Source of the DNA: a virus | Direction: 5' to 3' (one strand) | Length of the DNA stretch: 43,385 nucleotides | UHGV virus genome: UHGV-0217911 | Shown here: in pieces, positions 28,183-32,831 of the stretch | How the letters are laid out: every line of letters starts with the position of its first letter | Position numbering within the stretch: position 1 is the first letter of the stretch | Program-made: the position numbers and the translations under genes | Notes under the pieces: model-generated | Told to the model about the DNA's origin: nothing | The model's database searches: none | The model's input: the letters and a program-made list of their open reading frames with translations, nothing else

Positions 28183-28380
28183 ATGAAACAAGAAATGATT
28201 ATCAGCAAAGACGGGGAAACGATGATTGTTAGTGATGAAAACCTCATTAAGGTTGCCGCACTGTTGGGAGTTACTCCCGAAAGTCTTCGTTCTACCACTG
28301 CCCAATTATTTAAATCGGCTGATGCGGTTAGTCTTGCTGATGCCCTTAAATCTAAAATTAAACAACTGAAAGGAAAATAA
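28183..28380 (+). CDS. Small hypothetical protein (65 aa), first gene of a six-gene operon
   Basis: ATG at 28183 with AGGA upstream; the track ORF start at 28141 lies inside an upstream hairpin. Confidence 0.5.
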   Translation: MKQEMIISKDGETMIVSDENLIKVAALLGVTPESLRSTTAQLFKSADAVSLADALKSKIKQLKGK

Positions 28381-28384
28381 TCTT

Positions 28385-28768
28385 ATGGCTAACCCATATG
28401 GAAAATTAAAAGCAGTGAATGCGGATAATTCCCGTTCACGCTGTAAGGTAGTAGCTTACGCTGCTGATCCAGTGCTGCAAGATCGCCTCGTCAAACTGGC
28501 TTCACCTCTCACTGACGATCTTATTGTCGGGGCTTTGCTGAAAGCCGATGGCACCAAAGCAACAACTGCATCTGATATTGCTCACGTAGTAGTTGAACCG
28601 GCTTATGAAGGACAGGAAAGCGTAGTGGTTGCACATCCTACTTTCGTTATTCTGGCTGAAGATGGGATTGAATTTAACAGCATGGAAAAGGCAAGTGTTA
28701 TTGCAAAACTGCAATCTCTCGGCTTTGTAATTGCTGGTTATGAAGAACTTGCGATCCCTACGACTTAA
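28385..28768 (+). CDS. Hypothetical protein (127 aa)
   Basis: Tightly packed behind the preceding gene (4-bp gap); no motif recognized. Confidence 0.6.
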   Translation: MANPYGKLKAVNADNSRSRCKVVAYAADPVLQDRLVKLASPLTDDLIVGALLKADGTKATTASDIAHVVVEPAYEGQESVVVAHPTFVILAEDGIEFNSMEKASVIAKLQSLGFVIAGYEELAIPTT

Positions 28769-28782
28769 CAAGGAAAATAATA

Positions 28783-29814
28783 ATGAATGATTTATCAACA
28801 TATTTTGGCGTTAATACTGCGGTAGTAACTCCTTTTGCTTATGAGAATGCACTTAATACCCTGATTACTAATCTCGATCTGTTCGATGTGCAATATCATA
28901 CAGAAAACAGCATTCTTCTTACCGACCTGATCGATCAGTTTGTGCAGGTAGCTGGGGAAACCTCGCCTTACGCTCAAAGCGACTGGAACGCCTCTAAACG
29001 TCAGGAATGGTCAAACAAACTTTTCCAGATGAAACACGTCGGCAGTATTAACGCTGTTACTTCTCGTGACCTGGAACAATACAGCCGCCAATATCCAAAC
29101 CGTTCTGATGCTATGCTGGTAGCGGTTAATGATTTCTCTGAGGCTCATTACCGTTCACACGCAAACCGTGTTGAAGTGGATCTGATTACCGCGCTGCTGG
29201 GACTGAAAGTTGAATCTGAATATGCCGGACAAGGTGATCTCGACTTCCTCGACGGTCAGGCTAAAACCACGGTACCCGCTATCGACTTTGCATCGACTAC
29301 TGTTAACCCGTTCCTTGCTATTCGTAAAGCGGTGCGCTTACAGAGTGAAAAGCTGGGGTCTGGTCTTGCTGCAAAGCGAACTGGTGTAATTATCTTTGCT
29401 GCTGGCGCTGCTGCTGATGGTTTGTCATCTAACCCGCTGATCAGTGACATGGTGAAATATGCAGGTGATGCGAGTGCTACGGCCCTGTTTACCCGTATGG
29501 TTGATTCTAACCCAGCCTATGACTCTTTCCAGATTGGTGGGATCACTGTTATTGATGTGTCAATGTTTCCTGAGATTGTTGCTCACATCGGAGAGAACGG
29601 TTTCGCAATTGTCCCGGTAATGGATAAATCGGTACAGTGTTACCAGCTTCACACAGGCGTTGGTGTGCGTCATGCTGAGTTAGGTCAAGATGCCGTGTTG
29701 CATCACCAATATCTAATCAAGGATGAATTCCAATTCCCATCTGTGGTTACTGAGACATCTTATCTGCCAGTAAACAACATTCCGCAAGCTATCATCTTCG
29801 GATCTGCTGCGTAA
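28783..29814 (+). CDS. Hypothetical protein (343 aa); possibly a virion-structural-type protein
   Basis: Long ORF with good coding appearance; the size and its position after a ~130-aa protein resemble a decoration/capsid pair, but no diagnostic motif was seen. Confidence 0.6.
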   Translation: MNDLSTYFGVNTAVVTPFAYENALNTLITNLDLFDVQYHTENSILLTDLIDQFVQVAGETSPYAQSDWNASKRQEWSNKLFQMKHVGSINAVTSRDLEQYSRQYPNRSDAMLVAVNDFSEAHYRSHANRVEVDLITALLGLKVESEYAGQGDLDFLDGQAKTTVPAIDFASTTVNPFLAIRKAVRLQSEKLGSGLAAKRTGVIIFAAGAAADGLSSNPLISDMVKYAGDASATALFTRMVDSNPAYDSFQIGGITVIDVSMFPEIVAHIGENGFAIVPVMDKSVQCYQLHTGVGVRHAELGQDAVLHHQYLIKDEFQFPSVVTETSYLPVNNIPQAIIFGSAA

Positions 29815-30165: not shown

Positions 30166-30199
30166 CAAACAACAATCATAATACAGGGAAACAATTAGC

Positions 30200-32101
30200 A
30201 TGTTAGAAATTAGCGCCTCACGAATTAGTAATGTTGTGACATTTACCACTGATTTCAAGAGCTTACAGAAAGCTAAGAATGAAGTGGATAAGCTACAAAA
30301 GAAGATGCAGGGGATCAAACCTGTGCAAGTGGCGGCAGCACGTCAGAAAGATTTACAGAGGCTGGGAAAAGAGATTCAGCGCCAGCATGATCAGCATGTT
30401 AAGCAGGCTGTTAAATCTGAGACACAGGCATCTAAAGCCAGCACTAAACAGAAGCTACAGGAAGCTAAAAACCTCGCTAAAGCACAGGCTAAACGAGCCT
30501 CAATTGCTGAAAAGGCAGAGATCAAGCGCCTTGCATCATATCGCCAGTTACAAGGCATCAAGAACAATTCCCGCTATGGCGAAGGGATGGATATTAAGAA
30601 ATATCACGATGCTCTACGTTACATTAAGGAACAAACCCGCCTCTATGAATCCGGCGCTATATCGCAAGCGAAGATGAATGCCCTGATCCGTGACCGCATC
30701 ACATTAGAAAGACGAGCCGCAGCCGCTGCTACGCGTCGTAATGCTGCCGCTGGGGGGGTATATCCAGTTACTTCTAAGAAGCTCCACAAAGAAGGTGTTA
30801 GCGGCGGTGGCGCGTTAATGATGGGCGGTGTTGGTGGCATTATCGGCGGCGCTGCCGTTGGCTTAGGAAGTATGGCTGTATCCGCTGGAATGGAAAAAGC
30901 CCGTGAACGTATGGAATTGCAGAAGATGAGCGATCTGGTAGGTGCCGATAGCAATCAGGTGGCTGCAATGGTTAATTGGGGGAGGGCAAACGGTGTATCA
31001 AGTGCAAGCGCGGACAAGACCACTGATAATATCAAAGACTTAAACGAACGCATTGGTCATCAAAGCCGAACTGCTGAATGGGATAGTAAGAAAAAAGAGT
31101 GGCGAGGCGGGGAAGGATCATTAAATGATATTCAGAATGCCTTTGCATGGAACAAAGATAAGATAGCTTCCTACCAGGGGCGACCGCTGCAACTCTTGCA
31201 AGACGTGGTGAGAGAAGGTGAACGCCGAGGAATGACTAAAGAAGCCATCATATCCCTGATCGAACCATTAGCAGACGATGCCAGCCATTATCTCAAGATG
31301 TTTTCCCGTGATGGGGAAGAGTTCCGTAAAACGATGGTTGATATGGAAAACAACGGGCAGCTACTGACAGAAGCACAGAAAGAGCAATATCGCGCAGCTA
31401 ACAAGACAGCTACAGCCTTTGACCGTCTGACAGATGGACTATCGAATCAGGCTATTTTGGGCTTCTTTGATGGCATAGCCAACATGCCAGCACTCAAACC
31501 GGAAGAAAGCAAAGCCTTACAGAATGCAGCTTATGGTGTTGGTGCATCGTTCGGGGATTTGGCTAAACAAGGCGCTATATTACTGACCTCTATGACTTCT
31601 TACGGGAATCAAATCACAAGCTGGATTAATAAACATCTTAGCCGTGGTGAGAATGATAACCGACCTGAGACACAAAAGGTTATGGACGCTGTTACAGATG
31701 GGGAATGGTCGCCATCAACGATTATCAATGAAGGTATTCGTTATGCAACTGGACTCGATACGAAAGATGTAGGGCGTATTGTGCGCGGTGAGGAAACACA
31801 GTCCGGCGTTCCAGGGTGGTGGACTGATTTAATTAATGGCAATGCTAACAGCTACGGATCAACCCTTGTTGCACGTAAAGCAGAAGCCTATCAGCCGACT
31901 GTAAGCCTACAACGTCAATACGCAACCCCTGTTAACGTGAATGCACAGGTTACGGTGCCGAGTGATATGATCTCTGTTAACGTCATCCCTAACGGTCCCG
32001 GCTTTCAGGATTTAATCCGCACTGAGATCAGAGCGAACAACAATCAGTTTAGTTCGAATCTGATTCTTAGCACGTTGTCAGGACAGAGTAGCGTTAACTA
32101 A
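30200..32101 (+). CDS. Large coiled-coil protein with internal glycine-zipper hydrophobic segment (tape-measure- or ejection-protein-like)
   Basis: 633 aa; N-terminal K/A/Q-rich coiled coil, then GGGALMMGGVGGIIGGAAVGLGSMAVSAG, then a long mixed domain. Confidence 0.65.
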   Translation: MLEISASRISNVVTFTTDFKSLQKAKNEVDKLQKKMQGIKPVQVAAARQKDLQRLGKEIQRQHDQHVKQAVKSETQASKASTKQKLQEAKNLAKAQAKRASIAEKAEIKRLASYRQLQGIKNNSRYGEGMDIKKYHDALRYIKEQTRLYESGAISQAKMNALIRDRITLERRAAAAATRRNAAAGGVYPVTSKKLHKEGVSGGGALMMGGVGGIIGGAAVGLGSMAVSAGMEKARERMELQKMSDLVGADSNQVAAMVNWGRANGVSSASADKTTDNIKDLNERIGHQSRTAEWDSKKKEWRGGEGSLNDIQNAFAWNKDKIASYQGRPLQLLQDVVREGERRGMTKEAIISLIEPLADDASHYLKMFSRDGEEFRKTMVDMENNGQLLTEAQKEQYRAANKTATAFDRLTDGLSNQAILGFFDGIANMPALKPEESKALQNAAYGVGASFGDLAKQGAILLTSMTSYGNQITSWINKHLSRGENDNRPETQKVMDAVTDGEWSPSTIINEGIRYATGLDTKDVGRIVRGEETQSGVPGWWTDLINGNANSYGSTLVARKAEAYQPTVSLQRQYATPVNVNAQVTVPSDMISVNVIPNGPGFQDLIRTEIRANNNQFSSNLILSTLSGQSSVN

Positions 32102-32174
32102 GTTTAACGATAACTAATAATAAAGCGGGGGCAATATTTATTGCTTTCCGCTCATTACACAAGGATTAATATAA

Positions 32175-32831
32175 ATGGCTATCAAAGAAAGTCAGATCAA
32201 CAGCACATCTAACATTAATACATCTAACAGCAAGGTTAAATCTGATAACGGATTTGCCATTATATGTAGCAACCTGAATAACGAGAATGCATCAACGATA
32301 GCCAGTTATAAAGCTATTACTTTTGACGCTGTTCCGGCAACTAAGGTTTCACGTTCTGCCGATGTTACATCGTATCCTGTGCAGGATGGTAATGATGTAT
32401 CTGATAATGTCAGGATCAAGAATAATAAACTTATGCTTTCAGGCATTATTACAGAAACACCATTAGCATTACGTGGTGATATGCTATCAAGTGCAGGGGT
32501 GAACGGTAACAGGTGTTCACAGGCTATTGCTTATCTTGATGAAATAATGAATGCCAGACAGCCTATTATTGTAAGCACAGAGCATAAGACGTTTGATAAT
32601 ATGATTCTGACAGGCATTGACTACGAATATAAAACAGAATCAGCTTTACAGTTTGATTTGCAGTTCGAACAGATAAGATTAGTGAGTTATGCAACTACTA
32701 ACGCTATTGCTGTAAAGACCGCATCACCTAAGAGCACAGGCGGACAGGTAAAAAGCCAAGTGCCAACCAATGCAGGAACAGCCAGCACCACTAAAGACAC
32801 CCTTCCGACGTATGACGGAGAAGTGAAATAA
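32175..32831 (+). CDS. Hypothetical protein (218 aa)
   Basis: ORF following the 633-aa gene; Ser/Asn/Thr-rich termini. Confidence 0.55.
   Translation: MAIKESQINSTSNINTSNSKVKSDNGFAIICSNLNNENASTIASYKAITFDAVPATKVSRSADVTSYPVQDGNDVSDNVRIKNNKLMLSGIITETPLALRGDMLSSAGVNGNRCSQAIAYLDEIMNARQPIIVSTEHKTFDNMILTGIDYEYKTESALQFDLQFEQIRLVSYATTNAIAVKTASPKSTGGQVKSQVPTNAGTASTTKDTLPTYDGEVK

Follow-up and report, generated by a model that had tools for sequence, protein, structure and literature searches.

A 12.1-kb integrative element of Escherichia coli with capsid and tail-core genes, a probable satellite of Stephanstirmvirinae phages

To our knowledge, what is known in detail about satellites of virulent phages comes essentially only from the Vibrio PLEs, elements resembling phage-inducible chromosomal islands, and phage ICP1, and we know of no described satellite family that is defined by a major capsid protein (MCP), a tape measure protein (TMP) and a tail-tube initiator without a portal and terminase. 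The satellite P4, of ∼11.6 kb, integrates at a tRNA gene, uses the packaging site of its helper, P2, and has a T=4 capsid with the decorating protein Psu. PLE measures ∼18 kb against ∼126 kb for ICP1 (PMC12772148), and the ICP1 nuclease Odn, with a DNA-binding domain captured from PLE RepA, cuts the origin of PLE at the iterons (PMC8263062). [quoted passage not shown] Here we describe a locus in the 43,385-nt virus genome UHGV-0217911, analysed as one strand from 5′ to 3′ and hereafter called the window, in which six plus-strand genes at 28183–32831 probably make up the module that serves morphogenesis in an integrative phage satellite of 12.1 kb. This satellite would belong to an apparently undescribed family of the Enterobacteriaceae, one that has as helpers large lytic myophages of the Stephanstirmvirinae, in the genera Phapecoctavirus (phAPEC8-like) and Justusliebigvirus (phi92-like). 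Three independent links point to these phages, namely structural homologues in phage gene order, a copy of the phage direct terminal repeat (DTR) boundary, and phage nucleases containing domains of the island replication protein (Rep). The last two are hard to explain unless island and phages interact.

The six open reading frames (ORFs), here genes A–F, are all present on the plus strand, and six identical coding sequences are annotated by RefSeq in identical islands. The initial annotation described them as tightly spaced, which fits three of the junctions (4, 14 and 34 nt) but not the two wider ones (153 and 73 nt); in order from A to F the gaps are 4, 14, 153, 34 and 73 nt, and hairpins are present in both long ones. 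In allele comparisons the ratio of non-synonymous to synonymous polymorphism (pN/pS) lay between 0 and 0.33 for all six genes, with the single exception of the 218-aa gene at 0.57 in a comparison of three substitutions; one allele, in L016, has a premature stop in gene A. Orthologous cassettes from different genera share 24–57 % protein identity. As pN/pS is low and orthologues persist across genera, the pattern argues that the six ORFs are functional genes under purifying selection and not chance ORFs.

Gene C (28783–29814, plus strand, 343 aa) can be assigned with confidence as an HK97-fold MCP, probably of the lambda-E/PF03864 lineage. Its AlphaFold model is of low confidence (pLDDT 55) and contains a long spine helix at residues 107–139; when this model was compared with the PDB by Foldseek, all 27 matches with E < 1e-3 were HK97-fold shells, with phage MCPs (PhiTE, ICP1, Bas63, Sf14, Chi/YSD1 and lambda) ahead of encapsulins and one engineered nanocage, and with PhiTE at the top (E-value 4.7e-10, probability 1.00). 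By sequence, gene C gave a weak match to the PHROG family phrog_29 (major head protein, E-value 1e-4) and a pairwise alignment with the phAPEC8 MCP, a clear PF03864 member, of 23 % identity over 178 aa (E-value 7e-4), a similarity that is weak but appears specific. Homologues in other enterobacteria are 42–57 % identical, and several of those at 42–49 % have a precomputed PF03864 match. Gene C itself has no Pfam match at E-values up to 0.1, and its homologue P0009 reaches 18.3 bits with PF03864, under the cut-off of 22.9. The initial annotation had wondered whether the 127- and 343-aa proteins might be a decoration and capsid pair, and AlphaFold with Foldseek now gives the HK97 fold for the larger of the two, the smaller being cement-like by position and size.

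That smaller protein, the product of gene B (28385–28768, plus strand, 127 aa), is a putative capsid cement or decoration protein. Counterparts directly upstream of the MCP gene are found in phAPEC8 (gp115, 132 aa) and phi92 (gp123, 130 aa); the best PDB sequence match by phmmer is phi92 gp123 itself, at a non-significant E-value of 0.98. No PHROG match was obtained (the cement family there is phrog_2680, a beta-tulip trimer), hhalign of the 127-aa family against phAPEC8 gp115 returned a non-significant probability of 0.6 %, and the AlphaFold2 model, built from a shallow alignment, was unusable for a fold search (pLDDT 46).

Gene A (28183–28380, plus strand; a TTG extension to 28141 is possible) encodes a helical protein of 65 aa, and the alignment of its family shows a conserved, basic C-terminal tail (...LKxLAKGK). 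It had no match in Pfam, PHROG or the PDB, and hhalign found no significant match between the gene A family and phAPEC8 gp116. Together with the other 65-aa protein, that of gene D, it represents conserved families with helix-turn-helix (HTH)-like motifs; profile searches of both families against the PDB produced only non-significant sigma-region-4 matches and spurious matches to designed repeat proteins. Candidate roles for gene A are those of a small scaffold or size-determining factor, or of a regulator. CpmB of the Staphylococcus aureus pathogenicity islands (SaPIs) is a small, helical internal scaffold of ∼65–75 aa that sets a small capsid size, and gene A is similar in size, helical and located beside capsid functions; this is an analogy only. 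In the Yersinia variant a 96-aa protein stands at the position of gene A; it is homologous to the N-terminus of phAPEC8 gp116, with 50 % identity across 60 aa (E-value 5e-14), and in the phage the gp116 gene immediately precedes those for cement and MCP. This fragment supports descent of the capsid block as a whole from the Stephanstirmvirinae lineage.

The tail genes are closer to their phage counterparts. Gene E (30200–32101, plus strand, 633 aa) is confidently identified as a TMP and as the full-length orthologue of phAPEC8 gp104 and phi92 gp134. It matches phrog_16051 (tail length tape measure protein) with an E-value of 1.3e-71, phAPEC8 gp104 (662 aa) with 32 % identity over 450 aa (E-value 6e-62) and phi92 gp134 (659 aa; PDB 21vq_V) with an E-value of 1e-48. 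The first ∼35 aa are homologous too (MLEISASRISNVVTF... versus LLEINASKISNVVTF... in the phage TMP), with a local score of 101 against 27±5 for shuffles, a relationship missed by BLAST, and at the extreme C-terminus an LSTLSGQS motif is common to both. Gene E is 26–29 aa shorter than the helper TMP, which, if tail length scales as in other phages, is predicted to amount to about one tube ring. For phi92 gp134, the residues at the C-terminus have been resolved inside the baseplate (PMC13450770).

Before its homology was recognized, this 633-aa protein had been described as a coiled coil combined with a glycine zipper, and a novel membrane-acting or abortive-infection system had been considered for the operon. 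Both features are real, as there is an A/K/Q/R-rich coiled coil and a Gly-rich hydrophobic segment (GGGALMMGGVGGIIGGAAVGLG, at about residues 202–223), and these, along with the name 'cell envelope integrity TolA family protein' given by PGAP, are what would speak for a membrane toxin or abortive-infection system built around gene E. However, the combination of coiled coil and Gly-rich segment is shared with the homologous phage TMP, and because the homologous phage TMP has a hydrophobic segment at the same place, we regard that of gene E as an ordinary TMP feature. Moreover, the homology to phage TMPs runs from end to end, no PADLOC model matched, and the TolA name is misleading, reflecting low-complexity composition only; a toxin of this kind is therefore scarcely credible to us.

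Gene F (32175–32831, plus strand, 218 aa) encodes a Dit-like tail-tube initiator, homologous to phi92 gp135 and phAPEC8 gp103. It scores 98.2 bits with the Pfam family Dit_like (PF21821; cut-off 24.2 bits, E-value 5e-28), is 61–65 % identical to the gene directly 3′ of the TMP in phapecoctaviruses, and is ∼64 % identical to phi92 gp135 (PDB 21vq_N, E-value 1.9e-68), which forms the hexameric tail-tube initiator of that phage (PMC13450770). Between the capsid block and gene E stands gene D (29968–30165, plus strand, 65 aa), which has an HTH-like motif and is upstream of the TMP gene in most variants. It is a divergence hotspot among near-identical islands, with pS of 0.20–0.27 compared with 0.01–0.04 in flanking genes, and purifying selection is retained (pN/pS 0.05–0.18), which suggests allele replacement by recombination.

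Genes B, C, E and F follow the same order as phi92 gp123, gp124, gp134 and gp135 and as phAPEC8 gp115, gp114, gp104 and gp103, and in island and phage alike cement and MCP genes are adjacent, as are those for TMP and initiator. The island differs from these phages in keeping only four of ∼25 virion genes, at identities of 23 % (MCP), 32 % (TMP) and ∼64 % (initiator), and in having two unrelated 65-aa genes interspersed among them. With an HK97 MCP, a cement-like protein and a TMP, the proposal in the initial annotation of a minimal virion-like module, serving as satellite capsid or in tail hijacking, gains support.

The second link to the Stephanstirmvirinae is a candidate packaging-site mimic at 23482–23566 (plus strand), a copy of the phapecoctavirus DTR-boundary sequence. 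Its counterpart is a non-coding segment found in ∼62 phapecoctaviruses, with which it shares 81 % identity across 85 nt and 95 % across 39 nt, and the core of the mimic (23507–23560) has the form TTAACGCGA-N36-CAAATATCA. In phages WPEC4 (DTR of 328 bp) and KKP 3954 (DTR of 309 bp) the matching segment straddles the DTR boundary, that is, the end of the record. The island variant L029 carries a 46-nt segment that is 95.7 % identical to phi92-like phages and corresponds to phi92 positions 318–363, a stretch that crosses position 343, where the left terminal repeat is annotated to end; in BME3, a phi92-like phage, PhageTerm has determined a DTR of 342 bp (PMC12210895). Alignment of islands with phages reveals an invariant core, GCTTAACGCGA ... 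CAAATATCA, and a sequence between the two halves that is specific to the phage genus. All five E. coli variants examined carry exactly one copy each, in cassette orientation and ∼1.2 kb from attL, of either the phapecoctavirus or the phi92 type, and in L030 a window-type MCP is combined with a phi92-type mimic. From these features we infer that the mimic is a copy of the helper terminase site.

The third link lies in the phages. A stretch of 353 nt of the island, including the 5′ end of rep, is 99 % identical to phapecoctavirus Mt1B1_P17, and the N-terminal 104 aa of its protein gp053 (328 aa) are 100 % identical to the island Rep. In gp053 this domain is accompanied by a second winged-HTH (wHTH) domain and by a C-terminal GIY-YIG-superfamily domain (Pfam MUG113; PHROG 681 endonuclease) that is related to T5-type homing endonucleases (T5orf172-type). 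The same architecture is found in muut_154 of Justusliebigvirus muut, the first domain of which is 100 % identical, at the nucleotide level, to the Rep of the L029-type island, which occurs in no fewer than 31 genomes; in gp053 and muut_154 alike, the second domain is ∼75 % identical to the L007-type Rep. This design is that of ICP1 Odn, and by analogy the phages seem to counter the island replication origin, the activity being a predicted one.

As regards its own anatomy, the element is 12,099 nt long (one repeat counted) and is bounded by a 21-nt direct repeat, ACTCCTATTATCGGCACCATT, equal to the 3′ end of the tRNA-Thr gene thrW. The left copy (attL, 22227–22247) sits inside a 46-nt thrW fragment that ends the upstream P22-like prophage, and the second copy (attR, 34326–34346) is identical; in L001 the same island adjoins an intact thrW without a neighbouring prophage. 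A tyrosine integrase gene (32906–34270, minus strand; RefSeq start 34183) matches Phage_integrase with an E-value of 3e-17, has a DUF6538 N-terminal region and occupies the same end of the element in every variant that has an integrase. A Rep-like wHTH protein, the putative origin-binding initiator, is encoded at 26320–26880 (plus strand; 186 aa from an ATG at 26320 or 194 aa from a GTG at 26296) and belongs with PHROG replication-initiation families (phrog_270, E-value 1e-8); its PGAP name, 'LexA family transcriptional regulator', is misleading. Five iterons of ∼23 nt (CACCCnnACAGAAnnCTGTTAnC) at 24643–24781 mark the putative replication origin. Between variants, the type of Rep DNA-binding domain and the iteron sequence change together, so that the replicons are modular. 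Additionally, 49 nt at the start of rep (26279–26327) are 96–100 % conserved in 499 of 5426 E. coli genomes and are kept even in islands with unrelated Rep DNA-binding domains; this junction looks like a fixed boundary for replicon swaps.

Thus the island is an integrative element with att repeats, an integrase, a Rep-like protein and iterons, and with an incomplete virion and packaging set, which is the make-up of a satellite. Amongst its larger ORFs, Pfam and PHROG scans revealed no portal, terminase, protease, sheath, tube, baseplate wedge, fibre or lysis gene in the 12.1 kb, and the small ORFs outside these scans are too short for a portal, a terminase or other such virion genes. That both head-shell and tail-core proteins are encoded might recall a producer of particles independent of any helper, be it a gene transfer agent-like or tailocin-like device or a miniature autonomous phage. 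With the listed functions not found, such a producer is hardly to be believed in.

Upstream of the cassette lies a non-coding leader of ∼1 kb (27189–28182, plus strand) with a predicted promoter, hairpins and an inverted repeat. The hairpin noticed initially is real: GC-rich, located at 28103–28150, followed by a T-run and situated 28 nt before the first start codon, it is terminator-like and has a minimum free energy of −24.2 kcal/mol (z = −3.5). A terminator-like hairpin with a U-run precedes the cassette in nine of nine variants, 25–70 nt before the first gene, and its sequence differs between them. This conservation suggests that the cassette may be expressed by regulated read-through of the terminator. 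A scan for consensus promoters and terminators gave counts not above shuffled expectation and missed the leader terminator owing to its long loop; no late-promoter motif common to the island and to phAPEC8 intergenic regions was seen, the phage regions looking sigma-70-like. Further upstream, a sigma-70-like promoter (27201–27230) is followed ∼230 nt further on by a hairpin with a T-run (27457–27505), which together could define a small RNA of ∼270 nt, and at 27937–28001 the two perfect 16-bp arms of an inverted repeat enclose a loop of 33 nt. Neither the features at 27201–27505 nor the repeat at 27937–28001 are conserved in sequence in other variants, nor did they match Rfam, and an Rfam scan of the whole island found nothing credible.

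The cassette is widespread. Its layout of a ∼65-aa protein, a ∼125-aa protein, a ∼345-aa MCP, a second ∼65-aa protein, a TMP of 600–634 aa and, with or without it, a tube initiator, followed by an inward-facing integrase, was found in at least 10 genera, with hosts that comprise E. coli, Klebsiella, Citrobacter, Buttiauxella, Kluyvera, Kosakonia, Phytobacter, Scandinavium, Raoultella and Yersinia. E. coli has at least three cassette variants, two of which, besides the window type, are at tRNA-Gly beside actS. The cement and MCP segment of the window type is present at ≥ 95 % identity in ∼234 of 5426 complete E. coli genomes, and carriers of the island include ST131, O104:H4, avian pathogenic E. 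coli (APEC) and bloodstream isolates. The islands of strains FDAARGOS_1259 and D8 are identical. One bloodstream isolate, MS20658 (NZ_CP082075.1), has two islands, one of window type at thrW (∼294077–304476) and one of L029 type at tRNA-Gly (3108534–3126875), which differ in their Rep and iteron types and in their terminal-repeat mimics.

This distribution bears on whether the locus might be a prophage fragment in decay, left over from a temperate relative of these phages and now without function. The island sits at a tRNA hotspot, beside a pathogenicity island and a P22-like prophage, and contains only a subset of virion genes, as a remnant would. Nevertheless, the compact gene set is intact in at least 10 genera at 24–57 % protein identity, pN/pS is ≤ 0.33 in all comparisons except one, the att repeats are precise, Rep/iteron modules have been swapped, and the island is found without the P22-like prophage; furthermore, the related phages are virulent, no temperate members being known in our searches. 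The initial annotation held that confident HK97 and TMP assignments with full synteny to a known prophage would reduce the operon to such a fragment. Both assignments are indeed confident, but the synteny is with virulent Stephanstirmvirinae and not with a prophage, and given a condensed four-gene subset in a dedicated 12-kb element across genera, that conclusion does not follow. We consider decay very improbable.

Within the satellite interpretation we lean, by a modest degree of belief, towards a more specific account, in which the satellite provides its own shell and replaces the TMP and initiator of the helper, switches between helper genera by exchange of the DTR-boundary module, and is opposed by phage nucleases with two DNA-binding domains, put together from Rep domains captured from several satellite variants. 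Infection by the helper would lead to excision of the island and to replication from the iterons by Rep together with helper replication proteins, and transcription would read through the conserved terminator before the cassette. The satellite MCP and cement protein, perhaps sized by protein A, would then build a small shell on the portal and scaffold of the helper, one that would suit 12 kb of DNA as opposed to the T=13 helper head for ∼150 kb. Helper terminase would recognize and cut the mimic site and package the island, and the satellite TMP and initiator, both of which keep their helper-interacting ends, would enter tails otherwise made by the helper. Such diversion would probably cost helper progeny, so that the island would also act as a defence.

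Defence might also be all that the island does. It could be a non-transducing defence island, whose divergent capsid, TMP and initiator act as dominant-negative or decoy subunits and whose mimic titrates terminase, the island itself remaining unpackaged. The helper-interacting ends retained by the structural homologues are compatible with this, the phage nucleases with island Rep domains show that the island harms or competes with phages, and interference with tail assembly by mobile elements is known from Tai systems (PMC11364771). An MCP at 23 % identity is, however, unlikely to co-assemble with that of the helper, and a dedicated replicon, an integrase and a single packaging-type site that is conserved in orientation, matched to helper genus and swapped as a module are features of elements that move; spread over genera and tRNA sites likewise implies horizontal transfer. 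We judge a purely defensive island to be unlikely, interference and transduction not being mutually exclusive.

Several points weigh against the satellite interpretation. All of the evidence is computational, and the support for helper-dependent induction, packaging and transfer is indirect, coming from the DTR-boundary mimic and the phage nucleases with island Rep domains. As no portal, protease, terminase or recognizable TerS was found in the island with Pfam and PHROG, capsid assembly would depend on a 23 %-identical MCP fitting helper partners, and the cement assignment of gene B is positional only. The data do not account for a satellite having a TMP and an initiator of its own. The ends of the WPEC4 and KKP 3954 records were taken as physical ends, the mimic was not detected in variants from outside E. 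coli by the searches used, and Rep domains may have passed between island and phage in either direction. Finally, we found no earlier description of a satellite of these phage genera in the literature, of which our coverage was incomplete, so a prior description is possible.

The element has further features. A small serine recombinase of the resolvase/invertase type (23568–24125, minus strand, 185 aa), recognized by NCBIfam models and labelled 'recombinase family protein' in RefSeq, occurs only in some island variants, and a 147-aa plus-strand ORF antisense to it (23503–23946) is probably spurious. Near attL, a basic 50-aa ORF (22850–23002) is 74–78 % identical in islands of Citrobacter, Kluyvera and Raoultella, which makes it far more conserved than most of the element. 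Upstream of rep, two small ORFs of 60 and 56 aa (25892–26266, plus strand) are conserved in the Klebsiella, Buttiauxella, Phytobacter and Raoultella variants, and downstream of it an acidic protein of 102 aa (26880–27188, plus strand) has 102-aa counterparts at the same position in L007, L030 and L031. The slot between TMP and integrase (window 32102–32905) varies across the family and may be a hotspot for cargo or defence genes. In the E. coli and Phytobacter variants the slot is occupied by the tube initiator, in Buttiauxella and Kluyvera by a phrog_5483 protein of ∼155 aa and in Kosakonia by a phrog_1090 protein of 92 aa (slot coordinates: L021, 13260–13724; L022, 11949–12422; L023, 4286–4564; L039, 11363–12110), and in one Logan contig the initiator is followed by a T4 Imm-like superinfection immunity gene (PF14373).

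Amongst Logan contigs of 12–14 kb, L038 is bounded by the tRNA-derived att repeat, so that its 30-nt terminal overlap is ambiguous as evidence of a circular form. L039 (ERR10766091, 13,649 nt) has a 30-nt terminal overlap that is not tRNA-derived, and carries a full cassette and a 492-aa DEAD/ResIII helicase-like protein, without an integrase. This contig may be a family member in circular, episomal or some other different form, or else an artefact of assembly. Matches in IMG/VR are prophage-region predictions that take in the P22-like prophage, and are uninformative on packaged island genomes.

In the window, three elements stand in tandem at thrW: a prophage, the 12-kb island and a vat island. 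The first (1–22245) is P22/Sf6-like, with terminase, P22-type portal, coat, needle and injection proteins and a tailspike at 19837–21915, and ends in the 46-nt copy of the thrW 3′ end (22200–22245). To the right of the island are a truncated P4-type integrase (34499–34837), a MarR-family regulator (35272–35796, minus strand) and the vacuolating autotransporter toxin gene vat (35922–40052, minus strand), which form a separate pathogenicity island.

If the satellite interpretation is true, it would provide an E. coli counterpart of PLE/ICP1 and so a tractable system for the study of conflict between satellites and helpers. The gene set raises the questions of how a foreign MCP assembles on a helper portal and why the inner proteins of the tail are replaced, the TMP and initiator in question being those that line the tail, with the TMP ejected during tail contraction. 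Phage nucleases that have captured Reps suggest that origin-directed nucleases are a recurrent counter-defence and not a peculiarity of ICP1. In practical terms, ∼4–9 % of complete RefSeq E. coli genomes, clinical lineages included, would carry an antagonist of candidate therapy phages. The phAPEC8-like and phi92-like phages are in use against APEC, uropathogenic E. coli (UPEC) and K1/K92 strains. Their yield could be reduced by the island or their host range shaped by it, and whether a phage encodes a gp053-type nuclease could indicate if it will overcome the island. In addition, the PGAP annotations 'TolA family protein' and 'LexA family regulator' can be corrected.

When compared with described satellites, the island shares with P4 its small size and tRNA integration and, as candidates, a helper-type packaging site and a capsid-decorating protein of satellite origin. 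P4 differs in using helper capsid protein with the external scaffold Sid, in its primase-helicase replicon and in lacking structural genes for capsid or tail. Searches of Pfam, PHROG and NCBIfam found none of the markers of P4 (psu, sid, delta, alpha), of phage-inducible chromosomal islands (PICIs; alpA, primase-replicase, TerS/cpm/rpp) or of PICMIs (Fis, TerS), and the presence of capsid and tail genes contradicts the definition of the last. With cf-PICIs the island has in common an HK97-fold capsid protein of its own in place of a remodelled one from the helper. It differs in that the MCP is accompanied by no more than a cement-like protein and a 65-aa protein, to which two tail-core genes are added, with portal, protease, connectors and TerS/HNH absent from the Pfam and PHROG scans, and in that its putative helpers are virulent phages of 150 kb.

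The likeness to PLE/ICP1 extends further. Here too a small chromosomal island, with a small satellite genome, is tied to a large virulent myophage; the replicon is modular, with an origin-binding initiator and iterons that differ between variants; and some phage isolates carry a Rep-type DNA-binding domain fused to a GIY-YIG/T5orf172-type nuclease (PMC8263062). There are differences as well: the small capsids of PLE consist of helper coat protein and a PLE scaffold (PDB 8g1r), whereas the island encodes its own MCP, TMP and initiator; its integrase is a tyrosine recombinase, its host is E. coli and its phage links are to the Stephanstirmvirinae; and the phage nucleases have two Rep-type domains with up to 100 % identity to those of islands, as against 42 % between Odn and PLE1 RepA. 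No PLE-like sequence matches were obtained, and the resemblance is one of function and not of membership. We judge the island to represent a new family within the phage satellites, one that, by analogy, would work most like PLE does with ICP1.

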